Shown in pieces: positions 16,345 through 58,919 of a DNA stretch of 64,000 nucleotides; position 1 is the first letter of the stretch; the number at the start of each line of letters is the position of its first letter. The position numbers and the translations under genes were made by a program. The stretch comes from a virus (lineage: Duplodnaviria; Heunggongvirae; Uroviricota; Caudoviricetes): the IMG/VR virus record IMGVR_UViG_3300042892_004104; one strand, given 5' to 3'. The notes under the pieces were generated by a model. That model had not been told where the DNA came from and ran no database searches. It saw only the letters and a program-made list of their open reading frames with translations.

Positions 16345-16352
16345 AATTATGG

Positions 16353-16408: not shown

Positions 16409-16413
16409 TACAA

Positions 16414-28481: not shown

Positions 28482-28495
28482 TATTGTGCTATAAT
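28467..28495 (+). promoter_or_regulatory. sigma70-like promoter TTGACC-17-TATAAT; the -35 lies in repeat copy 2 and the -10 just beyond it
   Basis: Read directly; drives the VWA gene. Confidence 0.55.
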
Positions 28496-28520
28496 TACAC
28501 ATAAGCAACAAAGGACTCGC

Positions 28521-35774: not shown

Positions 35775-36030
35775 ATATGTAGATGCTGAAGTCACACTGC
35801 CGCCGCCTGTGAAGAAACAAGTGTGGGATGGTGAACAGTTTGTGCCAATCACACTGTACAAGATAAAAGGGTGGCCAGGTATGGCTGCAGAAAACTGGCT
35901 GCTCACGAGTTTTGGACACGCAGGAACATATCGAGACGGAAGATACTGGGAATACAGCAGAGCCGGAGACTTTACTGTGATGGATGAAAAAGTGTATACA
36001 TGGTATCAAATGAAATGGGGCAACCAATGA
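35755..36030 (+). CDS. hypothetical protein (91 aa)
   Basis: GGAGG SD 8 nt upstream of the ATG. Confidence 0.5.
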   Translation: MWTQKIEYVDAEVTLPPPVKKQVWDGEQFVPITLYKIKGWPGMAAENWLLTSFGHAGTYRDGRYWEYSRAGDFTVMDEKVYTWYQMKWGNQ

Positions 36031-40209: not shown

Positions 40210-41337
40210 ATGATTAGAATAGATGAAATTTACAACAACACATTCTGGCCCTGGCTGAAGGCTAACCGTCCTGGTTTTAGAGCATTCTTTTGCGAACCGT
40301 TTGGACGCAGTGATCCTGCCAGTGTGATGAATTATGGCAGAGATGACATACATGAACACAATTATATATTCTTTTTTGACCAAGAGCCAATAAATTTGGA
40401 CATACACATGCCTACTTTTGCAAGAGTAGTTGTTTGTAATGTAGATATATTAAAAAATACAAGCATACAACAGCTAGTGATGTTACATAATCTCGGATAT
40501 CTTGTAACCAGCGAAAAAAACAGCGACAATGTTGCTGCTTTGTGCAAACAGCATTGGTGGACGCCTTTGTATTATTTCTTTCACGGTTGGGCAGCACTAG
40601 ATTGGTATCGAGGTTACGATAAAACTTTCTTGATCCAGCCGGCGTCTGAGCGTGTTATTACAAAGACATTCATTGCACCTAATCGAATTATAGCAGGAGA
40701 GCGACAACACCGGCTGGAGATGCTGTACCACATCTTTAAGAACGGAATGGCACACAATCATATCAGCTGCCCTTCTGTGTGTCCTTCAGAAAATATCAGC
40801 ATACTAGATGCTGTAAAACCATTGTCAAACAAGTATCCTGATATAGAATCAGTGTTTGCCGCACAAACTTTGCCTATAAATTTTGCCAACGAAACTGATC
40901 ATCCCATGCACTCGTGTTGGCTCAGCTTGTTTGATGAGTCAGCTGAAAGCCTGTTGTACTTGGTTACAGAAACTGTGGCCACAGGCCAACGACTTCACTT
41001 GACTGAAAAAACATTCAAACCCATTGCCCTGGGCATGCCGTTTGTAATTGTGGGCACCAAGGGCAGTCTGGAGTATTTGCGCAGTTACGGATTTCAAACA
41101 TTTGGAGATATCTGGGACGAGAGCTATGATTCTGCAGACGATGATGTACGTATAGAACGCATTACTAGCCTGTTACGTAGTCTCGACGAGTTGCCTGCTG
41201 AAGCCAAACAAGACCTGTTTGAGCAGTGTCACCAAGTCATAGAACACAACTGGAATCACTTTTATAGGGGTGGATTTGAAGCTGTGTTATGGCAAGAACT
41301 AAATGAGATGCTAAATGGAATTAAATCTAATAGCTGA
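40210..41337 (+). CDS. GT10-like glycosyltransferase (alpha-1,3-fucosyltransferase-like C-terminal motif), paralog 1
   Basis: HLTEKTFKPIALGMPFVIVG resembles the GT10 YxTEKxW...VPVVLG motif. Confidence 0.6.
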   Translation: MIRIDEIYNNTFWPWLKANRPGFRAFFCEPFGRSDPASVMNYGRDDIHEHNYIFFFDQEPINLDIHMPTFARVVVCNVDILKNTSIQQLVMLHNLGYLVTSEKNSDNVAALCKQHWWTPLYYFFHGWAALDWYRGYDKTFLIQPASERVITKTFIAPNRIIAGERQHRLEMLYHIFKNGMAHNHISCPSVCPSENISILDAVKPLSNKYPDIESVFAAQTLPINFANETDHPMHSCWLSLFDESAESLLYLVTETVATGQRLHLTEKTFKPIALGMPFVIVGTKGSLEYLRSYGFQTFGDIWDESYDSADDDVRIERITSLLRSLDELPAEAKQDLFEQCHQVIEHNWNHFYRGGFEAVLWQELNEMLNGIKSNS

Positions 41338-42496
41338 TCGCGTTGATAAAGGACGCATCTATCCTGCACTTGCTACTCACCAAGCAAGGCCTTACACACA
41401 GAGCTGGCGTGAGTTTGATCTGCATTTTCCCTACACCATTCCCTTACGACTGCAAGAATACTGTGACCATCATGAAGTCAAAATCAACATTCATTACATT
41501 CACAACAACTTGCCAGCCAATACGTTTTACCCAATAGGTCTGAGCTTTTTCAATTTTAGCATTGATTATTTTACTTTGTTGCCTGCTGAAATTTTTACTG
41601 CTGTGTGCCAGAAGAAAATTCGTGTGTTGTTTTACTATCACGAAGGGGACAATCCTGCCAGGATCAAACAAAGATTGGACAAATTAGCTGTACAAGTACG
41701 ACTACCAGCCAACTGTTATATTTTTGTTAGTGCTAACTCTGCTGCACGAGATATTCCAGGCTTTGTGTACTTCAATGACTTTGAACTTTGGTACTATCAG
41801 CGCAACCGTGAACAAGCACCTCTGGCCATACATTCTAAACCAAGAGAACGTGAATTCACTGTGTTAAATCGACTACACAAAAGCTGGAGAGCCACTGCAA
41901 TGGCAGATTTGTCACGAACAGGTGTGCTGGACCGCAGTTACTGGAGCTACTGCGAAACTGGTGAGTTAGATAACGACAACCCCATTGAGATAGACGCTGT
42001 ACCCGGACTGCGTGAAGCCACTGTGAAGTTTCTTGGCCAGGCACCTTATGTCAGCGACGAACTTGATCAGGACAGCCGCAACAATCATTCTGAAACTGAA
42101 TCCAAATATCACGTCAACAGTTATTGCAACATTGTGATGGAAACACACTGGGACGCAGATCAGTCCGGTGGCGCATTCTTAACTGAAAAAACTTTCAAGC
42201 CAATCAAGCACGGACAACTGTTCTTTGTTGCCGGTCCTGCGGGCAGTTTACAAGCTCTGCGTGATCTAGGCTACAAGACCTTTGACACAGTGTTGGACAC
42301 CATGTATGATCGCATTGAGGATAACACCCAACGCTGGATACGCCTATGTGATGCAGTTGCTCAGGCACGGCATAGATTGGCAGATCGGTTTGAAACTGCA
42401 CGAGCAGACATAGAACACAACCAACAGTTATTTGCCGAACTCAAGACGCAGCGTTTAAATAGCTTGATCAAGGACATTCATGAGCAATACAATTAA
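41315..42496 (+). CDS. GT10-like glycosyltransferase, paralog 2
   Basis: FLTEKTFKPIKHGQLFFVAG; alignable with paralog 1. Confidence 0.6.
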   Translation: MELNLIADRVDKGRIYPALATHQARPYTQSWREFDLHFPYTIPLRLQEYCDHHEVKINIHYIHNNLPANTFYPIGLSFFNFSIDYFTLLPAEIFTAVCQKKIRVLFYYHEGDNPARIKQRLDKLAVQVRLPANCYIFVSANSAARDIPGFVYFNDFELWYYQRNREQAPLAIHSKPREREFTVLNRLHKSWRATAMADLSRTGVLDRSYWSYCETGELDNDNPIEIDAVPGLREATVKFLGQAPYVSDELDQDSRNNHSETESKYHVNSYCNIVMETHWDADQSGGAFLTEKTFKPIKHGQLFFVAGPAGSLQALRDLGYKTFDTVLDTMYDRIEDNTQRWIRLCDAVAQARHRLADRFETARADIEHNQQLFAELKTQRLNSLIKDIHEQYN

Positions 42497-43523
42497 TTCA
42501 TACACCAGCTGGCAACCACTTGAAGAAGTGATTGTGGGGCAAGCATACACACCTGACTATTTTGATTTTATCGAAAACCCACAGGTGCGCAATCAACTGC
42601 AACAGATCTTGTCGGAAACAGCCGAAGATCTAGACAACTTGCAAAAAACCATTGAGAAGTTTGGTGCTCGAGTGCGGCGTCCTGATCTGCCCAACAAACA
42701 CAATTTCCAACAACAACAAATCACAGGGGACGGCGCGCCGCTGCCGCCGCTGACGCCACGTGACTGGCAGATCACTCTAGGCAACAAACTGTTACGTGTG
42801 TTGCCCATGCAAGAGCTTGACGCAGTTTGTGCCGAGTACGAAGCAGCTGATCCTGGCAGTGTGATTAATCCTCATGGACCGTCAGGCTGGGATGAAAACT
42901 GTATTCTAAATGGTGCCAGTGCCAGTTGTATTGTGCGAGTGGGTCGCGATGTGTTCTTTGACAACTCAGACTTCCTAAAACCTGAACAATCACGCTGGAT
43001 TGTGGACAATGTACTGGGTCCTGAGTACCGCATACACGAAGCTATCACCGACGGGCATGGCGATGCTGTGTTTGCTATACTCAAGCCTGGTGTGTTGTTG
43101 AGCAGCAAGCACGATGTGAATCTAAATCTTGCAGCAGATTTTCCTGGCTGGGACGTTTGCAAGATTTGGGATAGCTCAATCTGGGCTGCTATGGAAGTGG
43201 GCAAGTTCAAATACGAACAAAGCCCTGGTGCATGGTATGTGCAAGGACAAACACCCACAGCAGAGTTTACAGACTTTGTAAACACCTATCTAACCAAGTG
43301 GACAGGTTTTGTTGCTGAGACTGTGTTTGATGTCAACTGTCTTGTGCTAGACGAAAGTCACGTTATCTTTAGTGCCTATAACCGAGAAGTGTTTGACTAC
43401 TGTCGTAAGCACAAGATTGAACCTATCATTAGTGAACTGCGTCACAGCTACTTCTGGGATGGCGGCATCAGTTGCTGTACTCAAGACATTCGCCGACGTG
43501 GCGGGCTAGAAACTTACTTTTAA
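42480..43523 (+). CDS. amidinotransferase/deiminase-superfamily protein (pentein fold)
   Basis: C-terminal FWDGGGISCCTQ resembles the catalytic-Cys motif of amidinotransferases and arginine deiminases. Confidence 0.5.
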   Translation: MSNTINSYTSWQPLEEVIVGQAYTPDYFDFIENPQVRNQLQQILSETAEDLDNLQKTIEKFGARVRRPDLPNKHNFQQQQITGDGAPLPPLTPRDWQITLGNKLLRVLPMQELDAVCAEYEAADPGSVINPHGPSGWDENCILNGASASCIVRVGRDVFFDNSDFLKPEQSRWIVDNVLGPEYRIHEAITDGHGDAVFAILKPGVLLSSKHDVNLNLAADFPGWDVCKIWDSSIWAAMEVGKFKYEQSPGAWYVQGQTPTAEFTDFVNTYLTKWTGFVAETVFDVNCLVLDESHVIFSAYNREVFDYCRKHKIEPIISELRHSYFWDGGISCCTQDIRRRGGLETYF

Positions 43524-45001
43524 CTACAAACTCGAACGCCGTACTCACGTTCAAAGCGGTCCGCATCTGCTCGATCATTGACCATGGGCTCTCCGCGTAT
43601 GTTCAATGACGTGTTGAGCAGCATAGGACAATCAGTCATCACGTACCATTTTTCCAAGAGTTCTCTAATGCCTGAACCATCCGCAGGAACTGTCTGCACT
43701 CTACTAGTGCCGTCATGATGCACAATAGCAGGAAAAAGATCAGGATACCAGCAGTTGGCGACTGCTTGCATATACCTACTAGTGCTGAAACCCCTAGGCA
43801 TATCAAAATACTGATCAGCGTATTCTTCAAGGATAACTGGTGCAAATGGTCTGAATTGTTGTCTACGTTTGATCTCATTTACTTGATCCTTTATTTCCGA
43901 GCCACGAGGGTCTGCTAACAAACTTCTATTGCCCAGGGCCCTGGGTCCAAATTCTGCTCGACCACTAGCCACTCCCACAATTTTTCTAGTGACCAACTCA
44001 TCCAGGATGGCATTGACAGGATAAGCACCGAGGATATTGTGGCCAAGATAAGCATTGGTCCAGTTGATTCGACCACCATGTGCCAAGGCAGCAGCGCCAA
44101 GACTACTGCCTGCGTCACCAGGACAAGGCATGATCCAGATGTTGTCAAAATAATTTCCAATCCGTTGGTTGGCACTACAGTTAAGAGCAACACCGCCCAT
44201 GTAAACTAGGTTCCGGCTCCAGTTCAGTTTCTTAGCACGAACCATCACATTCAAAATAAGGTCTTCTGCTAGAGCCTGTGCCCCGGCGGCAATATCAAAC
44301 TCTGAATAATCATTTAGATATTCAGCTTCAAGACCTGTATGTAGATTCTCTTTGAATCGAATTTCATATTCATTGTCGATAAGATCGTAGCGCAGTCGAT
44401 TGCTGATATTGTTTTGTCCGTATGCAGCCATGCCCATTAGAATGTATTCTTCGTCCAGGGGTCTAAGACCCACACGAGCAGTGACTGCACTGTAGAACAA
44501 TCCTATGCTGTGCGGATACCCGCGGGACCAAAGTTTTCGATAAGTTGCTCGGCCCTGAGAATTGTATTCAGCGCCCCAGATGGTTATGGTGTCCCACTCA
44601 CCCACAGCGTCTATTACCACAACTGTGGCTCGATCAAATGGGCTGGTCTGAAATCCGCCTGCGGCATGACTTAGATGATGATTGTAACTGGACACATGCT
44701 CAGGCTTGATCTGATTGCCCAGTTGTGCCTTCAAGATCTGTCCTACAGTGAGTTTGTTCCACTCGATACCTTGTCCTGAATACCATTGTCGCAGTTGTTT
44801 ACGCCAAGGACGCTCATAGTAAGCAACTTGTTCAGGCTGACCATAATACAGTACGTCGGCAATCAGTCCTAAACTGATATCAGCGTCATTTTTCTTTTTG
44901 CTGTAGCGTTCTGAATGGCCGGCAAAAAGAATGTTGCCGTCATGATCCAGTACCGTGGCAGCAGCATCATGGAATCCTGCCGATATTCCCAGTATGTTCA
45001 T
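43520..45001 (-). CDS. carbamoyltransferase (NodU/CmcH family)
   Basis: N-terminal MNILGISAGFHDAAATVL...GHSERY and overall length. Confidence 0.8.
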   Translation of the reverse strand: MNILGISAGFHDAAATVLDHDGNILFAGHSERYSKKKNDADISLGLIADVLYYGQPEQVAYYERPWRKQLRQWYSGQGIEWNKLTVGQILKAQLGNQIKPEHVSSYNHHLSHAAGGFQTSPFDRATVVVIDAVGEWDTITIWGAEYNSQGRATYRKLWSRGYPHSIGLFYSAVTARVGLRPLDEEYILMGMAAYGQNNISNRLRYDLIDNEYEIRFKENLHTGLEAEYLNDYSEFDIAAGAQALAEDLILNVMVRAKKLNWSRNLVYMGGVALNCSANQRIGNYFDNIWIMPCPGDAGSSLGAAALAHGGRINWTNAYLGHNILGAYPVNAILDELVTRKIVGVASGRAEFGPRALGNRSLLADPRGSEIKDQVNEIKRRQQFRPFAPVILEEYADQYFDMPRGFSTSRYMQAVANCWYPDLFPAIVHHDGTSRVQTVPADGSGIRELLEKWYVMTDCPMLLNTSLNIRGEPMVNDRADADRFEREYGVRVCS

Positions 45002-45095
45002 TTATAAATGAAAGGGTCTCTTTTGCGTAGCTCTTTGAGTTTCTTGCGGTAACGATATTCCAGGGAGATTCTTGCCCATAATTTTTTTAGCCAGT

Positions 45096-46133
45096 TCATG
45101 TTAATTTCCTTATCTGCTGTAGATCATAGTCAGGATCACTCCAGCGATACTGGTATGTGGTCTGTGCCATGCTAGTACTTATTCTATAAACGTCTTGATG
45201 CTGCGACAACTGTGCCCATATTTCTCGGTAATCTACTGTGCCAAAACTGCGAACTAGATCCACTTGTGCCACTCTAGGATGCCCAATTGTTAGAGATTTA
45301 TCTTCAGGATCAAAGTTGTTGTCTATTAGCCAGGCACGAAAGTCTTTGAGTGATGCAATCTGCCACAGGAATGATCCAGGATTGTTGGCCCATTCTATAT
45401 CAAAATCTCCAGCTGCTTGAGTTTGGGATTTCAGTGTACTGGTCACAAGTTCGCTTACACGACTGTCTCTGCCTTCGTCTGTGAACACTTCCCAATGATG
45501 TTTGCCCACAGCTTTGTTCACTCCTACATATACGCCGCCCAGGGATCTATTGATAGTTTCTATTCCAAACAGTTCATAATCTTCATCTGACAGTTCAAAG
45601 CGTGGTGCTGCCAACCAGCACATCAACTGTGACGGACGTTGCCATTCAGGCGCTATTTTCAACATACGATTGCTTAATACCAAACTTTCTAGTTCGTGAC
45701 ACAGCAAATTTAATTGACGTATGTGCCAACGAGTTGTGTCATTGGCTGCTGTGTAATACGGGCTCATGGCACCCGACACACCTTGTAGGTCTTCAAAATA
45801 TTTGTGCAACTGATTTAGGTGGGTATGATTGATCCCAAGACTCGCATCAATTGTGTTGGCAGGTGTAAAAAAGTCTTGTATGACATATCCTAGATTGGCT
45901 GAATTAACAGCATGTATACTGCGATTGAGTTGTGTGCAGATGTATTCGTGGTTGCGATCACTCTCTGCCCAGCCCAACCAGCAATAGTTCTTTTCCAGAT
46001 GATTTTGATTCTGAATTAGCTGATTCAATGCTGCCAGCCATTTGCGTGAGAGACTGTTGTCTTCTACGTCAATATACACTGACAGCTCTTGATTGTCCGT
46101 GCTTCTTAGGTCCATCTGGATAGTATCAAGCAT
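45096..46133 (-). CDS. hypothetical protein (345 aa)
   Basis: ORF; ATGA-coupled to the downstream radical SAM gene. Confidence 0.6.
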   Translation of the reverse strand: MLDTIQMDLRSTDNQELSVYIDVEDNSLSRKWLAALNQLIQNQNHLEKNYCWLGWAESDRNHEYICTQLNRSIHAVNSANLGYVIQDFFTPANTIDASLGINHTHLNQLHKYFEDLQGVSGAMSPYYTAANDTTRWHIRQLNLLCHELESLVLSNRMLKIAPEWQRPSQLMCWLAAPRFELSDEDYELFGIETINRSLGGVYVGVNKAVGKHHWEVFTDEGRDSRVSELVTSTLKSQTQAAGDFDIEWANNPGSFLWQIASLKDFRAWLIDNNFDPEDKSLTIGHPRVAQVDLVRSFGTVDYREIWAQLSQHQDVYRISTSMAQTTYQYRWSDPDYDLQQIRKLT

Positions 46134-47424
46134 GTTGGTTCCACCATTCTAGCACCGCGGGCCTTGCTGACAAAATATCAGCCATGGACGTTGATGATTT
46201 GCGTATGCTTTCTAATTGTAACACTCTAGCCCGACCTTTAGCAACTCCTTGAGCATGGGTATCTGGCCATTGTTGTTCAAACGTGGGGCGTGATTTCAAT
46301 TGCATCAGCACATCACGCATGGCGCCTGAACTGGCTTCAATCAGTTCATCCAGCCAGGGATGCAGCAGATTTTTGGGCAGGGCCAATGGGCTCATCACAA
46401 TATCTGGGCCAAAACTAAACACCACTTTGGCCAGCAATTGCACACCCAGTTCTTGAGCCAGTTGCTGTATGGCCAGGACCTGTGTCATGCCCGGCAGGGT
46501 CAGTGTAAAGTCTATGCGCATCTGTCGCGGATTTGAACTGTGTTTTAATCCTTGACGGAAGTTTGCAAGCCAGGTGTTGTAGTCAAGCCCTGTTCGGATG
46601 TATTCTCCTGTGGCACCTGTACCGTCCAGACTTGCGCATATTTGCCAATCACGAATATGAGCCAGTATATCACCAAATAGATTGCGCCCACCATAGTCAA
46701 CTCTGCTAAGATTGGTATTATACCTTGCATATACTCGACCTCCGTCATTTAATTCAACAATACGAGCCATGTAACGCCAGTGCTGTTCGTACATCAGCGG
46801 TTCACCGCCGACCCAGTACACTTCTTCCACACGATGTTGTTCCACAGCGTCCGAGAATTCTTTTTCAATCTGACTGTCCTGGAATGCAGAAATCTCTTGA
46901 CGAATCTCAGGCTGCATCCATGCATTTTTGGGATTAGTCCAGTCAATCATGTGGTGTTGTCGTTGTTCACTTTCCCATGCACTAGATAACATGTCACCAC
47001 ATGTTCTACACTTGAAGTTGCACAGGTTGCTGAAACGATAGTCCCAGCTTACGGGTTGCATTGTGGTGCTGCCGTCTGGGGCAGTACTGCTGATTACTTC
47101 GGGCAACTTGTGACTGAACAGGTGTTCAAAATAGGTACGATACACATCAGTGTTCAACAACTGATCGTTGCACACTTCACACTCGGACAGGGTTTCTCCA
47201 GCCAACATGCGTCTACGCACACCGCGCATGTGTTCACCATTCCAGTGCTGTTCAAGTGTGATAGGAATATACCGGCCTGTACCTGCGGCCGTGTCTATGT
47301 ACTGAGCAAAGTTCTGCGCAGGTTCTCGACTGGCACAGCACATTCTACGTTCAGTTTGCGGGCTAAGATAGGTGTGTGTCCACGGAGCAAGACACAAGGA
47401 ACTAGCCATTGAACTTGTACTCAA
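46126..47424 (-). CDS. radical SAM paralog A
   Basis: LCLAPWTHTYLSP...MCC N-terminal motif; CNFKCRTCGDMLSSAW. Confidence 0.8.
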   Translation of the reverse strand: MSTSSMASSLCLAPWTHTYLSPQTERRMCCASREPAQNFAQYIDTAAGTGRYIPITLEQHWNGEHMRGVRRRMLAGETLSECEVCNDQLLNTDVYRTYFEHLFSHKLPEVISSTAPDGSTTMQPVSWDYRFSNLCNFKCRTCGDMLSSAWESEQRQHHMIDWTNPKNAWMQPEIRQEISAFQDSQIEKEFSDAVEQHRVEEVYWVGGEPLMYEQHWRYMARIVELNDGGRVYARYNTNLSRVDYGGRNLFGDILAHIRDWQICASLDGTGATGEYIRTGLDYNTWLANFRQGLKHSSNPRQMRIDFTLTLPGMTQVLAIQQLAQELGVQLLAKVVFSFGPDIVMSPLALPKNLLHPWLDELIEASSGAMRDVLMQLKSRPTFEQQWPDTHAQGVAKGRARVLQLESIRKSSTSMADILSARPAVLEWWNQHA

Positions 47425-51199: not shown

Positions 51200-52301
51200 T
51201 TAGATATGTTATTAAATTCTGTGGGAGACGGTTTCGTTCACGAGCATTGTGTTCGCGCAGGTGTTGATAATTGTATTTACACACCTCTCGAGCAGCAGTC
51301 AAGAAACTGCTAGCACCATTATAGCATATATCTTTGACTGTTGCAACCACGGCGTCAGCCCGATCCTGTGCGTTGTCTATCATGTCAAATGATTCATCAA
51401 TCAGATGGCCAAAGGTTTGAAATCCTGCATTCCGTAGATCTCGATAGTAGCCTGTGTTAGCAGCCACTACAAATGGATGACACATGATCATGGGCTTCCA
51501 GATTTTTTCTGTTCTGAATGAGTGGGGGTAATCAAAAATGGTTTCTGTTACTAGGCTAAAACATGTGTCCATGTATGCCTGCGGATTGACAATGGCGTCA
51601 CCCCAGGTATTGCCAAACAATTCATGCTTGACAAATCCTGAATTCAAACTGGCCTTGAGATTGGGCCTGGCACGAGGTATTTCATATTCCGGGGGCAGCA
51701 GTCTAACGTGTTCTAGTTTGGCTGTTTGCAGCACAGACGTAAACTCCATTTCAACCTGACTGCCCAAATTGGTCCACAGTGCATCTCTCAACAGATCCTG
51801 ACTGCGTAGTGCATCTATTAGATACTTGCGATGTGGTCTGAGGCGTCCATTTAGAAACAAAAATTCATAGCGTTTGACTGGATCAGCAAACACATCTGAC
51901 TCGGCTGCCGCTAGATTTTCAGTGTATTCTACTATGTTACTAAAGTAACAGTCTGTGCTGAGTTCATGAAACCCTGCTTCTAGATTGCCACTGGCGATCA
52001 TGCGTATGTTGCGATTCTGCACCAGCTCAGTGATTCTCAGTCTTGAGAGCTGTAGTTTGATTGTTTCAGATCCTTCGGCAGGATTACAAAACACAATGCG
52101 TCCCGGGTGTTGGCGTGCTAGGTCAGTGATTGACTGCCAGTTTTCTTTCAATACCACACGCCCTACAATATAAAACTTGTTGGGATCAAAGGTTACTGAT
52201 TTCCAGTCCCAGAAGCTTTCCACAGCATAGGGCTTTAATAAATCCCATACTTCAGCCCATTCGTCCACTACTATGTTATGCGGCCCTAGCATGATACTCA
52301 C
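51192..52301 (-). CDS. GT10-like glycosyltransferase, paralog 3
   Basis: FRTEKIWKPMIMCHPFVVAA...GFQTFG. Confidence 0.6.
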   Translation of the reverse strand: MSIMLGPHNIVVDEWAEVWDLLKPYAVESFWDWKSVTFDPNKFYIVGRVVLKENWQSITDLARQHPGRIVFCNPAEGSETIKLQLSRLRITELVQNRNIRMIASGNLEAGFHELSTDCYFSNIVEYTENLAAAESDVFADPVKRYEFLFLNGRLRPHRKYLIDALRSQDLLRDALWTNLGSQVEMEFTSVLQTAKLEHVRLLPPEYEIPRARPNLKASLNSGFVKHELFGNTWGDAIVNPQAYMDTCFSLVTETIFDYPHSFRTEKIWKPMIMCHPFVVAANTGYYRDLRNAGFQTFGHLIDESFDMIDNAQDRADAVVATVKDICYNGASSFLTAAREVCKYNYQHLREHNARERNRLPQNLITYLNE

Positions 52302-53676
52302 ATTCTGCCCACCATGACTTCATTTCAGGAAAGGTCTTCAAGAAGTTGGTGCCACGCCGACGATCATGTTCACTAAAGAAACGCCAAAAGTCTGCTTTGG
52401 CAACACTATGATCTTTGTCCTGTCCCGCTCGCATCCAGGCTATGTCTCGGTCCAGTCGACTGAGTTCGTAGTCTTTGAATCCTTGAAACGGTGTTTCGGC
52501 CGTTTCAATTTGACGTACCATCCAGGCCCACAAATGCTCCAGTTTGTCAGCATAGGGTTCAGGAAGAATCTGCAGACTCTGCCAGGCTGGCTCACGCAGC
52601 ACAGGAGTATCAAACCACACACGCTGATAGGTCTTGCTGTAGGTTTTTCTCAGACCCAGAATGCCAGCAAACAAGTTTTCCAGACTTGGTACACTGAGAT
52701 TGTTCATTGTGACAATAAATGTCAGACTTGAGTAATTGGGAACTTCAGTTAAGAATTGATTTACTCGGTCCCACAGCAGATCAAAGTCCAGGCCATGCCG
52801 TATGTATTCTGCTTGAGCTCCCCAGGTGTCTAGACTCACGTACTGCATGAAATGTTCTATGCGTCCATCGCATAGCTGTTTCACATAGGACAGATACTTT
52901 TGCCAGGACTTTTCATCCACACTAAAGTTTGACGTGACATTTAGGTGCAGTTTAGCACTGGGGTTGGCCAGCACATAGTCAAATACTCGGTAAGTGTTCT
53001 TGTCAAGAAGTGGCTCGCCGCCAGTCATACGGAAGTGTTCCAGTTCGGGGTATAACGTGGGCCACCAAGACCAGAAGGCATCTACATAGGGATTGTGATC
53101 ACGGGCAGGAATAGGACGATTACGGCCGGTAAAGTGACCAGGATCGTTATGCACAGTGCTAGTAGGATATCCGCCATGTCGATCGACTTCTTGTTGCCAG
53201 CTTGAACTAAACTGCGGGCTGCAATAGCTGCAAGACAAGTTACAAGCATTATTAAAATTAACTTCCACATAACTAGGTATGGCATCCTCATCTCCTGTTG
53301 ATTGGGTAATTACTGAATAATCTTTGGCTGCCCAGGGTTCACCTGATCTATAGTGTCTATCACTCAGCTTGTCATGTGCTTCCATGTTCCAGCAATAGCT
53401 GCACTCTGCAGGTTTGGTGCCTGCTAGCATGAGTTTGCGCTGCGATTTTTTAAACGGTGTATTGTGCAATGCACTTGGATTGCGGCCAATATCTTCTATG
53501 GGTATTTGGTGTAAAGGTGGATGATAGCATGAGTTGTTGAGCCCTGTGGGCAGGTGTAGGCTAACTTGTTTCCATTTAGCCAAGCACAAGGCAGGTCCCA
53601 GATCAGCCTGCATTTTTTCTGCGGCTGTTAGGAAATGACTTTTGTTGTCAGTAGTTTCATCGCCTTTGTTACTCAT
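52276..53676 (-). CDS. radical SAM paralog E
   Basis: LCLAKWKQVSLHLPTGLNNSCYHPP; CNLSCSYCSPQFSSSW. Confidence 0.8.
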   Translation of the reverse strand: MSNKGDETTDNKSHFLTAAEKMQADLGPALCLAKWKQVSLHLPTGLNNSCYHPPLHQIPIEDIGRNPSALHNTPFKKSQRKLMLAGTKPAECSYCWNMEAHDKLSDRHYRSGEPWAAKDYSVITQSTGDEDAIPSYVEVNFNNACNLSCSYCSPQFSSSWQQEVDRHGGYPTSTVHNDPGHFTGRNRPIPARDHNPYVDAFWSWWPTLYPELEHFRMTGGEPLLDKNTYRVFDYVLANPSAKLHLNVTSNFSVDEKSWQKYLSYVKQLCDGRIEHFMQYVSLDTWGAQAEYIRHGLDFDLLWDRVNQFLTEVPNYSSLTFIVTMNNLSVPSLENLFAGILGLRKTYSKTYQRVWFDTPVLREPAWQSLQILPEPYADKLEHLWAWMVRQIETAETPFQGFKDYELSRLDRDIAWMRAGQDKDHSVAKADFWRFFSEHDRRRGTNFLKTFPEMKSWWAECEYHARAA

Positions 53677-54826
53677 ATTCGTAATTTCGTAAAATGTTAT
53701 CTACTGCAATTGATTTAAACGGTAATAGTTCAAATAATTTTTCTCCGCGCAAGTTGTCTAATAGCAATACGTGCGAAATAGTTTGCTGAAATAAAAATTG
53801 ATTGCGATTGTTATTAATCAAATTTTTAATATGTTGTACAATTTTTTTGTCTATAGGGTAACTGGATTCAATGTTGGTGATTTTTTCCAGGGCTAGAGAT
53901 TTTAATTCGTCTGGAATTACGTCTATTGCTAGATAGTCAGGACCTGTCAGTATAATTGGTTCAACAGTAATGTTGTTTGACCAAGCATATTTGTATAATT
54001 CATCAACAAACCACATGTTTAAAATACTCACCACAGGTGCCAACACGACTGTGATATTTGATTTTTGTGACACTAATATCAAATGTGTTAAATTAAATTT
54101 TATTTTTTCCCAGCTTGTACCAGATCTAATATATTCTAATGGGGCGCCTACTGCGTCAATGCTACATCGTACTCTGACATTTTTAAATTGTTTCCAAATG
54201 TCAATAACATTTTTATCTTTGTATTTTATTGTAGTCAAATTGGTATTATAAACCAACGATATGCTATTAGATTTCCCACTATCAATCAATTCCTCAAGCA
54301 GGTCCCAGTGTTCTCTGTTAATCAGTGGTTCTCCACCTGTAAAATACATCCAATGCAATGAATCAGTGATTAGTATATCTTTGTAATCAGTTATGTCTTG
54401 CTGTTGTATTGACGGAAATTTGTCAAGTTCTTCCGCCCATTGACTGCTAAAATGTGGGCCGCAGTATCTACATTTTAAATTACAAAGATTAGTATTTCTG
54501 ATATCAACAAACTGCAACCCAGGAGCCGATGTCACTGTACTATCAAATGATTTTCTATAGCTTGGTAGTCCATGATATTCTGCCACCGAACATGTATTAC
54601 ACGGGTGGTCCGGCGGGCAGTCTTGAGTCTTTAAATCTGCAAATCTGTCAGGATTTGATAATTCTGATATGGGTTTTAGATAATCTGCGGCAATTTGACA
54701 GCAAGGTCCAATTTTCCCATTGGGGAAAACAGTAACTCCATGATCAATAGCGGCACAATTCCAGGTCATATTACCAACCTTCTTGAGCTCGAATAACATC
54801 CATTTCTCGGACCATGATACCTTCAT
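53669..54826 (-). CDS. radical SAM paralog F
   Basis: NCAAIDHGVTVFPNGKIGPCC; CNLKCRYCGPHFSSQW. Confidence 0.8.
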   Translation of the reverse strand: MKVSWSEKWMLFELKKVGNMTWNCAAIDHGVTVFPNGKIGPCCQIAADYLKPISELSNPDRFADLKTQDCPPDHPCNTCSVAEYHGLPSYRKSFDSTVTSAPGLQFVDIRNTNLCNLKCRYCGPHFSSQWAEELDKFPSIQQQDITDYKDILITDSLHWMYFTGGEPLINREHWDLLEELIDSGKSNSISLVYNTNLTTIKYKDKNVIDIWKQFKNVRVRCSIDAVGAPLEYIRSGTSWEKIKFNLTHLILVSQKSNITVVLAPVVSILNMWFVDELYKYAWSNNITVEPIILTGPDYLAIDVIPDELKSLALEKITNIESSYPIDKKIVQHIKNLINNNRNQFLFQQTISHVLLLDNLRGEKLFELLPFKSIAVDNILRNYEYE

Positions 54827-55736
54827 TGTGCCAGTTGCTTCGGTAGTGGTGCTTGAAAAACTTGCTTTGTTCTGCTTCCAGCATGGCCATTGGCAGATCC
54901 AGTTGTTGATCTAGATCTTCTGCCACACGGCCTGCTAGCAATCTTGGATCACTGGATTCCACAGTCTTCCACAGTTCAGCCAGTGCATCAAAGTTCTGCA
55001 CTTGAGTATGATCCCAGTTTGTGAGCATGGTCATGTAGGTGCCTTGTCTTGCGCCGGCCATGCTCCAGTAGCCGTGGTCAACATCTGCACCTATGTTGTG
55101 CCAGATGGTGAGATGGTCCAGATTGCGTTGATGCACACGATCCTTAAATTCTTCCAGTGTGGGCTTGGCTCCGCGATTCAGGCACATCTTTACACCTTCG
55201 CGGAATCCTGCACGCCAGGCATGAAAAGCAGATCCATTGGGATAGGTTGTTGAGTAGCAGTCATGCATGGCCCAGTACAAGGGATCAAAACAAAACTCCA
55301 CCTGTGTTTCTGTGCGGCCGTCTGTGGCTTCGTGTGTGCGCATGCTGTTCACAAAGGTTTTTGTCCAAGAGCTCAGTCCACCATTGCCATACATGAGTCC
55401 GTTGACGGCATTTCTCGCTCTCCAACGGAACACAGCAGATTCATAATCTGCCGTAGCAAATGCCAAGGTCTGATTGAAGAATTTGGCGTCAGGCATGTTG
55501 TCCCCGTCGATCAGGATGAATCGTTCTGTAGTGCTAGCAGCCGCAGCGGCCTTGTGTGCTGCGTCGGACCCGCGAACGCCGTCCACACGCTGCGCCCAGG
55601 GCACCATGTTGCGTATGATTGCCCAGTATTCTTCTTTCTTGGGTTCATCAAATGTCAAAAATATCACGTCTAGGTCTGCTATGTCAATTTGTTTCATAAG
55701 TTTTCTTGGTCCATTTTTGATGGGGTCGGTGCTCAC
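54771..55736 (-). CDS. putative GT-A-fold glycosyltransferase (DxD: [10 protein letters not shown])
   Basis: DxD motif and context only. Confidence 0.4.
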
Positions 55737-56058
55737 TGACGATTACAGCGACATTGCGAAGATCGCAAGGGGATCCAGAGTCAGCAGGCACAAGTTTTGT
55801 GATTGTTTTCCACACACGTTGCGTTAGTTTTCCATCACGCACATGTACATGCATGGGGCTACGAGCATACGTTGCAGCATCTATTTCAATGTATGTACCT
55901 GGCACATCATCCATGCTGTAAAATAATGGTCGGCCATCGGAGTCATGATACAATCTATAACTCACAGGGTATGTTTCAGGCACTGCATGCAGTATGCTCC
56001 AGAATTCATCTGGTGTCATGGCTGCCACTCCTTGATGTGATAATGGAATGCACCCCAT
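55684..56058 (-). CDS. hypothetical protein (124 aa)
   Basis: ORF. Confidence 0.45.
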
Positions 56059-56777
56059 TGTGCCACTGTGTTTATCCGTAACGGATCATGTTCCCAGATC
56101 AGTTCGTGTGTCCACTGATCGGTTGTGCCTGCATGATGCGGTTTCATGTGAACAATTTGTGGATATGTGGCAAAGGGCATGGTAACTCTGTGTTCACCCA
56201 TGATCTGTGCAGCCATGGCATACACCAGATCAGTGTCTGCTACTGCTGGCGCAAACTTTATTAGTGTGCGAACGTGTTCCCAGTTGGCAAAGATATCTTG
56301 TGTCAGGTCAAAGAATTCTTTTGCAGTTTCACTCAGGCGCCAGTAGGTAATAGCGTTGTACACATCAGGCAAGTGATTTTGATCAAATACTCGGCGATAA
56401 TGCCGAGCAGTGCTGACATCGCCGCACCAGTTTCTACAGCCTGTGCTGATCACAACATCACGGTGTCTGAACAGGTCCCACCAGTGTGAGATAGGACTGG
56501 CTATCAGCATGTCTGCTTCCAGCTTGATTGTTTCACGAAACGGCGTTAACTGAAATACTGCTGCGTCATTGGCATAGGCATTGTCTGACACAACCGGCAG
56601 CACATGCACATAATCAAACACAGAATCTTCTACTGGTTGATCTGTGATCAGGCATACTCTTGCAGTAGGATGCTGTGTCTTTAGACTTTGCACCAACATA
56701 GCAGCGCAACGAACATAGTCAACTGTGGCAGTGTTGACTGCTAGCACAACATAACCTTGTTCTTCAATGGGTCGCAA
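56016..56777 (-). CDS. nucleotide-diphospho-sugar transferase-like protein (GT-A, GT8-like)
   Basis: N-terminal [25 protein letters not shown]...VCLITDQ resembles GT8/glycogenin-type starts. Confidence 0.45.
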
Positions 56778-57576
56778 TTATGTTCTCCAGGTGCTGTTTG
56801 CCCATGGCATGAAAATCTGTAGTATGCCATTGAATGTATTTTGATTGGTTGTCTGGGTCGCGATATGTGATGCGGTATGTATCAGTTTGGTGTGCAATTT
56901 TGGTCAGCACTGTGTCTGGCATTACAGTCAGTAAGGGCCAGGGCATTTCATCTACCCGGCCTGTGTGGCCGCTCACAATTCCCAGAGCAATACTCAAGGC
57001 AAAATCATTACGATAGGTCTTGTTGTCAATGCCATACAGTGCGCGGTAATGTTCCCAGTTGTTTCGAATCATCTGCATGCAGTCAAATATATATTGTGCA
57101 GTGTTTGACCGACGAAATAACATTACTGTGGCCCACCACATGGGCATGCTATGCCGTCCAAAAACATTGAGTCCTTTCAAAGGATGCCCAGTGCTGAAGT
57201 TGACGGCCGATCGATGACACATAAAGTCTGTGTTGTATTCTAAAATTCTTTTGAGATCTGAACTGGCTACTACATAGTCTGCATCCAAGACCAGAGTCTG
57301 ATCCCAGGGCGTTAGATCATATGCGTTGACCCTACCGGCGTTGTGCCAGGTCACTGTGCTGGCATAGTCTTCAAACCATCGTGTGCCACCGGCGTCTGGT
57401 TTTGCATGTACCACTTGATCAAATGCGTTGAGTCTGGGATCTGCAGGATCCGCGTTAGTGACCACTGCAACAGGAATGTTTAAGTGCCGACGAATGTTTT
57501 CAGCACTCCAGGCGGCCAAGCGCACATAATCAGTGGCTTCGTTGTTGAAGGCAAATATCAGTGCGCCTGTGGTCAT
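56764..57576 (-). CDS. nucleotide-diphospho-sugar transferase-like protein, paralog of 56016-56777
   Basis: GALIFAFNNEATDYVRLAAWSAENIRRHLNIPVAVVTN parallels the neighbouring gene's N-terminus. Confidence 0.45.
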   Translation of the reverse strand: MTTGALIFAFNNEATDYVRLAAWSAENIRRHLNIPVAVVTNADPADPRLNAFDQVVHAKPDAGGTRWFEDYASTVTWHNAGRVNAYDLTPWDQTLVLDADYVVASSDLKRILEYNTDFMCHRSAVNFSTGHPLKGLNVFGRHSMPMWWATVMLFRRSNTAQYIFDCMQMIRNNWEHYRALYGIDNKTYRNDFALSIALGIVSGHTGRVDEMPWPLLTVMPDTVLTKIAHQTDTYRITYRDPDNQSKYIQWHTTDFHAMGKQHLENIIATH

Positions 57577-57881
57577 CGCTGTTGACGTTGTTGGTCAAAT
57601 TCCACAAGCCATGCATTCATTTGTTCTTGCCAACGATCAAATGCCAGGTGTTGTAATTCTAACGGACTTATCTTTACAGGAGTATCATAAAGATCCAGTA
57701 ACACTACATGGTCCTCAACAGGAACAGACTGCAGCACTGCCAGCAGTTCAGGGCCAGCACGCCACATTCCGCCGCTGTGGGCAAACAGCATACGGGCCTG
57801 GTATTTTTCTTTGAGCACACGGCGTGCAGTTGCATGATCAAAACGTGTTCGTGCGTGGGCAATTAAAGCATCAGTATCCAT
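57573..57881 (-). CDS. hypothetical protein (102 aa)
   Basis: ORF. Confidence 0.45.
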   Translation of the reverse strand: MDTDALIAHARTRFDHATARRVLKEKYQARMLFAHSGGMWRAGPELLAVLQSVPVEDHVVLLDLYDTPVKISPLELQHLAFDRWQEQMNAWLVEFDQQRQQR

Positions 57882-57936
57882 GCTGTATTATATTACAAAT
57901 CTAGATAAAAGTAAAGGGGCAGCAGCCCCTTTTTGG

Positions 57937-58905: not shown

Positions 58906-58919
58906 TTTGGTATCCTATA

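Follow-up and report, generated by a model that had tools for sequence, protein, structure and literature searches.

What would a bacteriophage do with seven radical SAM enzymes, and on what would they act? The window considered here, a stretch of 64,000 nucleotides, comes from an abundant lineage of uncultured jumbo phages with contigs of ~350 kb, and its radical SAM genes lie among glycosyltransferase-like and sugar-tailoring genes. An earlier note had read this island as the source of a novel carbamoylated or rearranged glycan, or of a DNA modification; the sugar context is strongly supported, and the enzyme classes named are present, save that no match to the GT10 profile was obtained. We favour, at a probability of roughly 40%, a soluble cytoplasmic operon that builds and tailors a glycan, probably for the virion fibres, with radical SAM enzymes that would act on sugars.

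Seven members of one radical SAM family

The paralogs are listed below; bit scores refer to the NCBIfam model NF033640 (N_Twi_rSAM).

46126-47424, minus: rS1, N-terminal-twitch radical SAM enzyme, 283 bits; core gene among relatives
47402-48616, minus: rS2, N-terminal-twitch radical SAM enzyme, 342 bits
48613-49872, minus: rS3, N-terminal-twitch radical SAM enzyme; best conserved of the copies
49862-51199, minus: rS4, N-terminal-twitch radical SAM enzyme, 300 bits
52276-53676, minus: rS5, N-terminal-twitch radical SAM enzyme, 321 bits; copy common to RsoM2USA
53669-54826, minus: rS6, accessory N-terminal-twitch radical SAM copy, 248 bits
5871-6995, plus: rS7, displaced N-terminal-twitch radical SAM copy within a tRNA gene region, 252 bits

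The coordinates given earlier are confirmed, as is the count of six genes at 46126-54826 and one at 5871-6995, and all seven proteins match NF033640 over their full length (248-384 bits; cut-off 170). The mechanical open reading frame of rS7 begins at 5724; the start at 5871 is preferred because the former overlaps a tRNA-Ile gene (5742-5831). Pairwise identity among the paralogs is 20-33%, with rS4 and rS5 sharing 33% (BLASTP, 2e-76). As in the NF033640 family in general, the auxiliary-cluster domain precedes the radical SAM core in all seven; in rS2, for example, Pfam detects SPASM (residues 9-78) ahead of Radical_SAM (residues 119-270). Seven cysteines are invariant in the seven-way alignment: C11, C30, C82 and C85 in the N-terminal region, and C135, C139 and C142 of the CxxxCxxC motif. 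The same residues are 91-100% conserved in 609 family members (432 phage and 177 bacterial). The predicted conservation of an N-terminal Cys motif and of CxxxCxxC thus holds on alignment, but the motifs had been worded too strictly, in that rS4 has CQFAC in place of CN(L/F)(K/S)C and rS6 lacks the W following the first Cys. By NCBIfam search the paralogs also fall, as anticipated, outside characterised single-function families such as QueE and anSME. An eighth radical SAM gene, of a different, B12-binding class, is located at 14242-15729.

The structural model of rS3 is nearest to the SPASM/twitch subclass. Its top match is the sugar decarboxylase BlsE, and the next structural neighbours, SkfB, anSME and SuiB, all act on peptides. 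A literature search found no paper on the chemistry of NF033640 and no member with a known substrate, and the assignment of sugars as substrates therefore rests on gene context and subclass. The bacterial neighbourhoods of the family are mixed, containing PhyH and WelO5 oxygenases, GDSL proteins, other radical SAM enzymes, MFS proteins and patatin, and are not plain polysaccharide loci.

Glycosyltransferases and sugar-tailoring enzymes

The genes related to sugar chemistry are as follows.

2852-3541, plus: NeuD/PglB/VioB-type sugar N-acetyltransferase-like protein; Hexapep 1.8e-10 (Pfam), NeuD_NnaD 6e-28, under cut-off (NCBIfam)
36000-36995, plus: NDP-sugar 4,6-dehydratase/epimerase-like short-chain dehydrogenase; phrog_540 nucleotide-sugar epimerase, 1.2e-58
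36925-38034, plus: DegT/PseC/WecE-type NDP-4-keto-sugar aminotransferase; phrog_3139 aminotransferase
38009-40207, minus: p732, with N-terminal D(F/Y)SW.P.P...PY.Y.F repeats and a p321-homologous C-terminal half
40210-41337, plus: TEK1, GT-B fold glycosyltransferase-like protein
41315-42496, plus: TEK2, paralog of TEK1
42480-43523, plus: amidinotransferase of the StrB1/AGAT/HsvA/SxtG type
43520-45001, minus: carbamoyltransferase of the NodU/CmcH family
51192-52301, minus: TEK3, GT-B paralog that separates rS4 from rS5 in the radical SAM array
54771-55736, minus: p321, conserved DGD-motif protein with invariant DEP, DGDN and NGLMYGNGG
56016-56777, minus: p253, weakly GT8/glycogenin-like GT-A paralog
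56764-57576, minus: p270, weakly GT8/glycogenin-like GT-A paralog; homologs RsoM2USA_353/352, order kept

The three TEK proteins had been described as GT10-like. Their GT-B fold and their paralogy are upheld (BLASTP to TEK1, 5e-13 for TEK2 and 2e-12 for TEK3; TEK2 carries the invariant E..TEK..KP...G..TF common to the paralogs), but GT10 membership is not, as PF00852 gives no Pfam match to them even at E<=10. In one case, a TEK-family protein and a UDP-glucose/GDP-mannose dehydrogenase form a single fused protein. The two proposed GT-A paralogs, p253 and p270, match each other at E 1e-14 (BLASTP), and a profile search of the PDB (profile A7) weakly suggests a GT8/glycogenin-like fold for both (for p253, glycogenin-1 at 1.6e-4 over residues 8-115). 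The sole family hint for p321 is a weak one, Glycos_transf_2 at E 0.09, and the protein is possibly GT-A-like; its homologs are found in RsoM2USA (39%) and at the C terminus of p732, residues 508-712 of which match it at E 2e-7 (BLASTP). No Pfam or PDB match was obtained for p732.

The amidinotransferase is a true member of the StrB1/AGAT type, matching PDB entries end to end (profile A6: 1bwd, StrB1, 6.1e-36; 2jdx, 8e-35; 5wpi, 1e-32; 6u1r, 4e-32) with the G-H-x-D motif and C-terminal Cys invariant; the motif given for it earlier as GGGISCCT reads DGGISCCT. Both Pfam domains of the carbamoyltransferase exceed their cut-offs (Carbam_trans_C 1.7e-46, Carbam_trans_N 9.9e-40), in agreement with the first reading. 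The nearby amino-sugar genes were likewise found, a dehydratase-like enzyme and a 4-aminotransferase spanning 36000-38034. The former has dTDP-glucose 4,6-dehydratase as its top NCBIfam match (3.7e-33, under the equivalog cut-off), and the latter matches PseC (3.6e-42) and dTDP-4-amino-4,6-dideoxygalactose transaminase (1.2e-30), both under cut-off. The product of 2852-3541 is possibly a remote member of this module, judging by its family matches. A ThyX gene precedes the sugar-nucleotide genes by ~0.6 kb.

TobZ, of tobramycin biosynthesis, is a member of the NodU/CmcH Pfam family, and the combination of a StrB1-type amidinotransferase, a NodU/CmcH carbamoyltransferase, a DegT-type aminotransferase, GT-B enzymes and twitch-class radical SAM enzymes close to BlsE mirrors aminoglycoside and related pathways. 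The product could thus be a free small molecule, a cationic guanidinylated, carbamoylated pseudo-oligosaccharide of the aminoglycoside or nucleoside-antibiotic type directed at the host or at competing phages. A similar trio in a cyanophage genome was called "antibiotic synthesis genes" by its authors (PMC12801897), and Trp halogenase and AMP-binding enzymes occur among the accessory cassettes of the relatives described below. However, a cyclitol synthase, an exporter and a self-resistance gene were not detected in the island, strain-level hypervariability and fibre adjacency are atypical for such clusters, and the GT8/glycogenin-like enzymes suggest a macromolecular acceptor. We regard this explanation as improbable.

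The gene run, its fibre neighbours and its relatives

The remaining features flank or close the radical SAM array.

45096-46133, minus: p345, conserved partner that closes the overlapping gene run; adjoins rS1 in 72 loci
55684-56058, minus: p124, small conserved protein; position kept in 58 loci
57573-57881, minus: p102, first in the overlapping gene run; conserved in 47 loci
57887-57932, minus: terminator-like hairpin and promoter-like site, by consensus scan, directly after the fibre gene and before p102
57937-60707, minus: tf322 and tf595, two virion fibre/baseplate-type proteins directly upstream of the island

On the minus strand, 14 genes from p102 to p345 (57881 to 45096) overlap their neighbours by 4-56 nt; they include the two glycogenin-like GT-A genes, p321, six radical SAM genes, one GT-B gene and p345. 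The carbamoyltransferase gene follows across a 94-nt gap. A divergent arm contains the two further GT-B proteins, TEK1 and TEK2, and the amidinotransferase, with the dehydratase-like enzyme and the aminotransferase beyond it. The run is preceded by a hairpin at 57932-57913 with a T-run, overlapped by TTTACT-17-TATAAT at 57915-57887, both being consensus matches only. Purifying selection acts on every gene (dN/dS <= ~0.2). No convincing transmembrane segment is seen in any island protein, the top 19-residue hydropathy values, 1.70 and 1.61, belonging to radical SAM enzymes.

The island occupies the distal end of a tail-fibre/baseplate gene module. Its reported adjacency to tail fibres is borne out; the identity of the fibres comes from weak PHROG virion structural/tail fibre matches for tf322 (30% Ser+Thr) and tf595 and from the homology of tf595 (58920-60707) to gp359 of PA5oct, an MS-verified virion protein whose gene adjoins a T4 gp10-like/long-tail-fibre gene. 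PA5oct has the fibre gene in common with this phage, and the island is absent there.

The p345 family comprises 379 clusters. Searches of Pfam and the PDB gave no match for p345, and p124 has no family match. In P0499, p345 is naturally fused, N-terminally, to an N-twitch radical SAM enzyme, an arrangement that resembles the recognition domains of peptide maturases. The radical SAM enzymes could accordingly act on the fibre proteins or the small p102/p124 products themselves, epimerising residues, cross-linking them or introducing formylglycine-type oxidations; p345 would then recognise the substrate, and the sugar enzymes would be a separate matter. The co-occurrence of bacterial arrays with Asp/Asn hydroxylases and further SPASM radical SAM enzymes is consistent with this. 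Yet p345 matches no known recognition domain, the intergenic space is too small for a precursor gene, and p102, tf322 and tf595 contain zero, one and one Cys, respectively. In nearly every relative, moreover, GT-B and sugar-nucleotide genes are interspersed with the radical SAM genes. Such protein maturation seems to us the least probable of the alternatives.

Across 80 relatives, a fixed scaffold of rS1-rS5, p345, the carbamoyltransferase and the GT-A block is observed. There are four to seven radical SAM genes and zero to four GT-B genes per relative; TEK3 is kept or replaced, and rS6 has orthologs in L037 and L052 only. The genes rS1-rS5 form distinct orthologous subfamilies whose order is kept in nearly all relatives, and ~50%-identical orthologs of rS1, rS4 and rS5 are found, with a 33%-identical carbamoyltransferase, on a contig of 20 kb assigned to a Bdellovibrionales MAG. 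Together, these sets point to several different fixed steps. The suggested iterative chemistry is not borne out, the copies not being recent duplicates, and combinatorial chemistry applies not to the array itself but to extra cassettes inserted from strain to strain. More than 100 accessory families lie between scaffold genes, mostly sugar-nucleotide tailoring enzymes (GDP_Man_Dehyd/Epimerase x4, Hexapep x2, FkbM x2, DegT, UDPG dehydrogenase, PfkB). The distant, cultured Ralstonia phage RsoM2USA has a reduced version of the island, also beside virion genes, MS-verified in that phage (PMC8504454). Its gene order is fibre-like gene, p102, GT-A, GT-A, x, p321, rS5; the p102 counterpart is 23% identical over 101 aa (BLASTP), and rS5 is 35% identical to RsoM2USA_349, likewise positioned after p321.

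The accessory genes are reminiscent of sets for O-antigen tailoring, and one relative (L003) has a CTP_transf_like gene beside PfkB, an HldE-like kinase/nucleotidyltransferase pair. Pelagimyophage tail-fibre clusters, for which O-chain modification is favoured, also hold GT8, LPS-type sugar and radical SAM genes (PMC7029224). The island might therefore serve to alter the LPS, capsule or S-layer glycan of the infected host, for instance as a block to superinfection. Against this stand the lack of an initiating phosphoglycosyl transferase, flippase, polymerase, ligase and ABC exporter in the island and of convincing membrane segments in its proteins. A lytic lifestyle is described for RsoM2USA, the carrier of the reduced module (PMC8504454), which leaves no lysogenic phase there for surface conversion to pay off, and the conserved fibre-gene linkage in that phage better fits a virion target. 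We consider host-surface remodelling unlikely.

Glycosyltransferases could instead act on hydroxymethylated bases, the amidino-, carbamoyl- and radical SAM enzymes tailoring the DNA-bound sugar against restriction or CRISPR. Diverse phage DNA glycans are made by GT and epimerase clusters, and those described adjoin a C5-methyltransferase/5mYOX or a ThyA-type hydroxymethylase (bioRxiv 10.1101/2023.12.21.572611). The solubility of every island enzyme and the nearby ThyX gene would fit, but neither kind of partner turned up in the island or in the 25 accessory families that are most common. ThyX is not known to be a hydroxymethylase. In addition, the lead over non-DNA GT-B enzymes (FucT 10.3, OGT 9.9) is narrow, no T4 glucosyltransferase appears by name in the top 50 BFVD matches, a few of which are nameless, the neighbours are fibre rather than replication genes, and the accessory families far outnumber those of known DNA-modification clusters. 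DNA hypermodification is the least unlikely of the alternatives.

Proposed pathway and comparison with known systems

For a glycan destined for the fibres, the p345-radical SAM fusion, the cassette content, the synteny and the fibre adjacency count in favour; the peptide-acting neighbours of the rS3 model, the mixed bacterial neighbourhoods and the weak GT8 and p321 assignments count against. The dehydratase-like enzyme and aminotransferase would supply an NDP-4-amino-4,6-dideoxyhexose-type sugar, which the GT-A and GT-B enzymes may move onto a cytoplasmic acceptor, the adjacent Ser/Thr-rich fibre proteins being the likeliest candidate. The amidinotransferase would convert a free sugar amine to a guanidino group with arginine as donor, and the carbamoyltransferase would O-carbamoylate a hydroxyl. 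The five conserved radical SAM enzymes are predicted to differ in the sugar position from which they take a hydrogen atom. If the fully Cys-ligated N-terminal auxiliary cluster serves as electron sink or relay, each enzyme would oxidise, epimerise, dehydrate or decarboxylate the sugar (cf. BtrN, BlsE, AprD4). Strain-specific cassettes (extra radical SAM enzymes, GDP-mannose dehydratases, methyl-/acyl-transferases, the kinase/nucleotidyltransferase pair) may vary the final structure. In short, this strain-variable, tightly packed operon, with its six to seven radical SAM copies, most likely builds an unusual decorated sugar coat.

Among characterised enzymes, BtrN, BlsE and AprD4 have a C-terminal auxiliary domain, whereas that of the phage paralogs is N-terminal, and identity is 10-19%. 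Compared with aminoglycoside pathways containing StrB1 and TobZ, the island has no cyclitol synthase and reaches no NCBIfam equivalog cut-off. The GT10 alpha-1,3-fucosyltransferases are counted among the closest systems, but the TEK proteins fall outside their Pfam profile. The chlorovirus capsid, mimivirus fibril and mycobacteriophage capsid/tail glycans are examples of virus-encoded cytoplasmic virion glycosylation, a putative role in the case of the island. We know of no use of radical SAM enzymes, amidinotransferases or carbamoyltransferases in those systems.

The earlier statement that neither pathway was recognisable overstates the novelty, since an NCBIfam model exists and comparable phage modules were published in 2010 (PMC2853527) and 2020 (PMC7029224). 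The interchangeable module of Campylobacter phages CP220/CPt10, which are large myoviruses, combines five radical SAM genes with a single amidinotransferase gene and two neighbouring nucleotide-diphospho-sugar (GT-A) transferase genes, and it varies between close relatives (Timms et al. 2010, PMC2853527). CPT_0086 is a homolog of the island's amidinotransferase (E 5e-9), but CPT_0080, 81, 83, 84 and 87 have no full-length similarity to the radical SAM family, those inspected having the motif at the N terminus and a Cys-rich C terminus, and the module lacks the carbamoyltransferase, the TEK GT-B family and p345. The hypervariable host-recognition clusters of pelagimyophages and cyanomyophages similarly combine tail fibres, GT8-type and LPS-type sugar genes with radical SAM cassettes, which vary even among near-identical genomes. 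However, they belong to a T4-like rather than a Rak2/PA5oct-like jumbo lineage, and a conserved five-gene radical SAM scaffold, an amidinotransferase and a carbamoyltransferase are not described there (PMC7029224). NF033640 itself is defined bioinformatically only; in this phage, five distinct subfamilies of it stand in a fixed array, with accessory copies besides. Similar multi-radical-SAM phage modules are thus already known, of which this island would be a further form.

Gene layout of the island and its conservation

The island consists of a minus-strand gene run and a plus-strand block that converge, with fibre-type genes upstream of the run.

57937-60707, minus strand: two fibre-type proteins (tf322 and tf595), directly upstream of p102 and on the same strand
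57881 to 45096, minus strand: overlapping run of 14 genes (13 of them named in the order below), every junction overlapping by 4-56 nt; includes six N-terminal-twitch (N-twitch) radical SAM paralogs (rS1-rS6, 46126-54826)
43520-45001: carbamoyltransferase
40210-43523, plus strand: TEK1 and TEK2 (GT-B-fold paralogs with a TEK..KP motif) and the amidinotransferase, convergent with the minus-strand run
5871-6995, plus strand: rS7, a displaced seventh radical SAM paralog

The order within the run is p102, the GT-A paralogs p270 and p253, p124, p321, rS6, rS5, TEK3 (the third TEK..KP paralog), rS4, rS3, rS2, rS1 and p345, after which a 94-nt gap precedes the carbamoyltransferase gene. To the left of TEK1 lie p732 (minus) and then an SDR and aminotransferase pair (36000-38034, plus). 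The ORF map thereby confirms the gene arrangement described in an earlier note, in which seven radical SAM paralogs are interleaved with glycosyltransferases, a carbamoyltransferase and an amidinotransferase-fold protein. Proteins of 202 and 820 aa are encoded upstream of p102 as well, next to the two fibre-type proteins and on their strand. A T-run hairpin begins 5 nt past the stop codon of a fibre gene and overlaps a promoter-like site, as judged from consensus matches.

The remainder of the window carries 29 tRNA genes (40-16562, plus), among which lie protein-coding genes such as rS7 and an eighth radical SAM gene. The latter (14242-15729, plus) differs in class from the seven paralogs: it lies between tRNA genes and combines a B12-binding domain with a radical SAM domain; its best NCBIfam matches, PhpK-type P-methyltransferase and BchE, are both below cut-off. 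A fatty-acid-desaturase-like di-iron membrane protein is encoded directly downstream of rS7 (7312-8088, plus), and a SegE-like GIY-YIG homing endonuclease at 1685-2482 (plus). A MoxR/CobS-like ATPase (26365-27450, plus) is 51% identical to that of PA5oct-group phages, and the protein at 28443-29798 (plus) matches phrog_1314; a DUF2201 metallopeptidase/VWA signature found in the same ORF batch probably belongs to the latter. The flavin-dependent thymidylate synthase ThyX is encoded at 34736-35422 (plus), with ~0.6 kb separating it from the downstream sugar-nucleotide genes. This gene is relevant to a possible DNA modification, but ThyX is not known as a hydroxymethylase.

The window belongs to an abundant uncultured jumbo-phage lineage. 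A megablast search of GenBank phages with the island and with a 16-kb flank gave no match, nor did tblastn with the 820-aa protein; tf595 is homologous to PA5oct gp359, which has been verified by mass spectrometry. The genome scan used an alignment of three paralogs. Related loci in IMG/VR number 254, and several of these lie on contigs of 342-353 kb; rS3 has 7609 database relatives, the best 120 of which are 84-94% identical and include proteins on 352- and 356-kb contigs. Two contigs of a Haliscomenobacter MAG (NZ_JBBAKG010000001.1, 183 kb, and NZ_JBBAKG010000003.1, 148 kb) also carry this island, at 87% and 82% identity respectively, and are either mis-binned phage or a hint of a Saprospiraceae host.

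Comparison of 80 related loci reveals a fixed order: fibre genes, p102, p270, p253, p124, p321, variable segment, rS5, TEK3 (not always present), rS4, rS3, variable segment, rS2, variable segment, rS1, p345, carbamoyltransferase, variable segment, amidinotransferase, TEK2, TEK1, p732, aminotransferase and epimerase. Between p321 and p345, radical SAM genes number five in 44 loci, six in 11, four in 4 and seven in 3, and TEK genes number from 0 to 4. rS6 is accessory, with an ortholog in only two of the 80 loci (L037 and L052). Purifying selection acts on every core gene (dS saturated). The variable inserts comprise 106 families. Those assigned most often in Pfam searches are DUF6071, additional copies of radical SAM enzymes, GDP-mannose dehydratase/epimerases, GDSL, AMP-binding, methyltransferases (FkbM and others), hexapeptide acyltransferases, PfkB kinase, UDP-glucose dehydrogenase, DegT and a single Trp halogenase. 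In a 356-kb relative (L003:3501-4958), three genes separate the GT-A genes from p124/p321. They encode a cytidylyltransferase-like protein and a PfkB kinase, which are similar to the two halves of HldE, the heptose-activating enzyme, and a cupin. Inserts unexpected for a sugar island also occur in loci L003-L087, namely a Trp halogenase, AMP-binding proteins, a D-Ala-D-Ala carboxypeptidase and a TctC-like binding protein; the tryptophan-halogenase-family protein (4.5e-91) lies in an accessory cassette at L025:17013-18500.

The N-terminal-twitch radical SAM paralogs

All seven paralogs match the NCBIfam model NF033640 (N_Twi_rSAM, "twitch domain-containing radical SAM protein") over their full length at 248-384 bits, above the curated cut-off of 170 bits. 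A SPASM domain precedes the Radical_SAM domain in Pfam searches, spanning residues 9-78 of rS2 and 31-96 of rS3. The Radical_SAM profile PF04055 itself scores 31-46 bits in rS2, rS6 and rS7 and 20-24 bits in rS1, rS3, rS4 and rS5, against a gathering threshold of 29.5 bits; the CxxxCxxC and GGEP motifs are invariant in the seven-way alignment (A1), including in the paralogs below this threshold. Seven cysteines are invariant in this alignment (C11, C30, C82, C85, C135, C139 and C142), four of them within the first ~90 residues (C-x18-C...C-x2-C), ahead of the radical SAM motif. The motif proposed in the earlier note is real, because the seven cysteines are kept at 91-100% in 432 phage and 177 bacterial members (609 sequences, family-HMM alignment), a conservation far beyond chance. 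The equivalog HMMs for QueE, MoaA, anSME-type enzymes, BlsE and viperin reach at best 15-45 bits against cut-offs of 180-650, so that the paralogs match none of the single-function families, such as QueE or anSME, that the note had named as the counter-case; QueE and 7-deazaguanine synthesis were set aside on these scores.

Pairwise identity among the seven paralogs is 20-33%. Closer relatives are found outside the window: proteins on Saprospiraceae and Flavobacteriales MAG contigs are 41% identical to rS3, and RsoM2USA_349 is 35% identical to rS5. Recent tandem duplication was set aside, since the paralogs are so diverged and each has closer orthologs elsewhere; the array thus represents old, distinct subfamilies rather than recent duplicates.

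Phages and bacteria together contain thousands of N-twitch proteins, and a published function for the family was not found in the literature. Its bacterial neighbourhoods are heterogeneous and did not fix a substrate. Three Bdellovibrionales MAG contigs (L131, L132 and L141) carry from seven to ~nine N-twitch genes within 17 kb, some of these arrays together with an amidinotransferase homolog, and carbamoyltransferase homologs adjoin family members in seven loci (L092, L114, L116, L120, L145, L152 and L154). One of the latter, L152 (JAYQON010000055.1, a 20-kb contig in a Bdellovibrionales MAG bin), encodes proteins 46-51% identical to rS1, rS4 and rS5, a 33%-identical carbamoyltransferase and a pair of epimerase-like products; the contig may represent a bacterial version of the cassette or a further piece of phage DNA. 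Marine virus AG-345-D19 (MH319727.1, 7955 bp) contains an amidinotransferase homolog (2630-3904) and an N-twitch fragment (7267-7905) on one short contig, which indicates that this pairing recurs in marine viruses.

Partner enzymes and a candidate glycan pathway

The carbamoyltransferase contains both Carbam_trans_N (137 bits) and Carbam_trans_C (158 bits), far above the Pfam cut-offs of 24 and 27, the N-domain match being partial (profile positions 121-345); it scores 132 bits against the NodU equivalog cut-off of 1000. The amidinotransferase as a single sequence has no Pfam or NCBIfam match, and only a profile search of PDB identified relatives. An eight-sequence profile aligns end to end, over residues 4-352 in two stretches, with StrB1 (1bwd, 6e-36), AGAT (2jdx, 8e-35), HsvA (5wpi, 1e-32) and SxtG (6u1r, 4e-32). 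C332, H193 and D195, which we take to be the catalytic residues, are invariant in the profile (A6) as a G-H-x-D motif and a C-terminal cysteine, and C332 aligns with the GG(F)HC cysteine of StrB1 and AGAT. Both assignments in the earlier note, a NodU/CmcH-type carbamoyltransferase and an amidinotransferase-fold protein, are thus upheld, the second by full-length homology to solved members of the StrB1/AGAT branch. The SDR dehydratase/epimerase-like and DegT/PseC-type aminotransferase genes at 36000-38034 (plus) resemble a 4,6-dehydratase and a C4-aminotransferase, with both products below NCBIfam equivalog cut-offs, and a NeuD/VioB-like acetyltransferase is encoded at 2852-3541. These enzyme classes would also fit a free aminoglycoside-like product. 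That reading is very unlikely, since no cyclitol synthase, exporter or resistance genes were found in the island. Pfam searches of the island proteins gave no match to 2-deoxy-scyllo-inosose synthase or inositol-phosphate synthase, although p345, p321, p124 and p102, which matched no family, may still include a cyclitol-forming enzyme.

The TEK proteins adopt a GT-B fold, and the TEK..KP motif that the earlier note had described is invariant in them. The GT10 membership suggested in the note is not supported by the family model, as none of the three matches PF00852 at E<=10. In the fold comparison, T4 BGT and AGT score above FucT. This likeness, together with recent evidence for diverse phage DNA glycans (bioRxiv 10.1101/2023.12.21.572611), would suit glycosylation of DNA by the island enzymes. 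However, a ThyA-type hydroxymethylase, a C5-methyltransferase and a 5mYOX dioxygenase are absent among the island genes and the 25 commonest accessory families, with only ThyX nearby, and DNA glycosylation is considered unlikely.

The paralogs p253 and p270 have no Pfam match; their profile (A7) retains a D-A-D motif and weakly matches glycogenin (GT8) at 1.6e-4, over residues 8-115 only. p321 shares a domain with the C terminus of p732 and contains a DGD motif, its sole family signal being a weak GT2 hint (0.09). Apart from that hint, Pfam searches even at E<=10 returned only noise for TEK1-3, p345, p321, p253/p270, p124, p102 and p732. In PDB, profiles of the TEK family, p321 and p345 (for p345 also one built from 39 sequences) gave no match, and neither did p732 and tf595 as single sequences. 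p732 itself (38009-40207, minus) has no Pfam or PDB match; its N-terminal part contains three or more copies of a module of ~50 residues, D(F/Y)SW.P.P...PY.Y.FGNQWWPAEIMPTVEY.VPGA.

Relatives of known function were not detected for p345. In a 754-aa database protein (P0499), a p345-family domain (~24-275) is naturally fused to an N-twitch radical SAM enzyme (~336-746) that scores 292 bits on the family HMM built here; in two others (P0455 and P0473), the p345 domain follows a 400-residue N-terminal part. The fusion and the radical SAM subclass would fit direct maturation of a protein by the radical SAM enzymes, but the gene context does not, and direct protein maturation is considered highly improbable. 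The gene overlaps leave no space for a small RiPP-type precursor ORF, and p345 has no detectable similarity to known domains.

The highest 19-residue hydropathy among the island proteins is <=1.7, and the two top values occur in radical SAM enzymes. Remodelling of the host surface by the island is decidedly unlikely, as Pfam and hydropathy analyses of the island proteins identified no membrane initiating transferase, flippase/polymerase or ABC exporter. Because the enzymes are all soluble, lipid-carrier machinery is absent and sugar-nucleotide enzymes are abundant, the data suggest a cytoplasmic pathway for assembling and tailoring a glycan, with a soluble protein or other molecule as acceptor. 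Virion proteins are the most likely acceptor, because the linkage to fibre/baseplate genes is conserved in two very distant jumbo phages and because glycogenin-like GT-A enzymes occur with a fibre protein of 30% Ser/Thr. The earlier interpretation, a glycan on virion proteins or a DNA modification, is supported in part, in that the enzyme classes (GT10 membership excepted) and the sugar context stand.

In such a glycan pathway, the amidinotransferase could plausibly guanidinylate a 4-amino sugar and the carbamoyltransferase could plausibly modify a sugar hydroxyl. By analogy with BtrN, BlsE and AprD4, the radical SAM enzymes would most plausibly carry out position-specific oxidation, epimerisation, dehydration or decarboxylation of sugars. 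We tentatively propose, at a probability of roughly one in four, that the five conserved N-twitch enzymes form a cascade of new carbohydrate radical chemistry that yields, with the arginine-dependent amidinotransferase and the carbamoyltransferase, a guanidino- and carbamoyl-bearing rare sugar, either placed on fibres or released as an aminoglycoside-like compound. If so, this sugar would represent a glycan type hitherto undescribed in viruses, and the enzymes making it would belong to a family that lacks a known function in bacteria too. Decoration of virion fibres would extend virion glycosylation to jumbo phages, adding radical, guanidino and carbamoyl chemistry, and would matter for host recognition and for the diversity of phages at strain level in natural waters. 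A product on DNA or a free metabolite would represent a new class of phage counter-defence or a phage-made bioactive compound.

Islands in cultured phages and published genomes

The phage operon in which the N-twitch family is observed here is compact, strongly conserved and very abundant. Its recognisable partner enzymes, and a reduced version in the cultured Ralstonia phage RsoM2USA (344 kb), make the chemistry of the N-twitch family directly testable in an unusually tractable setting. The order in RsoM2USA is a fibre-like gene, p102, p270, p253, a further gene, p321, an rS5-like gene and a p321-like gene, and virion genes verified by mass spectrometry and baseplate genes directly adjoin this island-like block (PMC8504454). 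PA5oct has the fibre gene and lacks the island, and Vibrio phage K566 carries four N-twitch family members among unknown genes.

Related assemblies have been reported in other phages. In 2010, Campylobacter phages CP220 and CPt10 were described as carrying five radical SAM genes and an amidinotransferase gene in an interchangeable module (PMC2853527). In the CP220 record, two GT-A genes adjoin the module, and its amidinotransferase is homologous to that of the window; membership of its radical SAM proteins in the N-twitch family was rejected, as 0 of the 5 cluster proteins show full-length similarity. In pelagimyophages, hypervariable clusters at the tail fibres combine GT8 enzymes with LPS-type genes and with radical SAM cassettes (PMC7029224), and a marine T4-like genome has 12 radical SAM genes (PMC5332604). 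A cyanophage combines an aminotransferase, a radical SAM enzyme and an amidinotransferase, with a second amidinotransferase in its virion proteome (PMC12801897). Phage islands of this sort have thus already been described and never explained, and the island of the window is a variant not described before.
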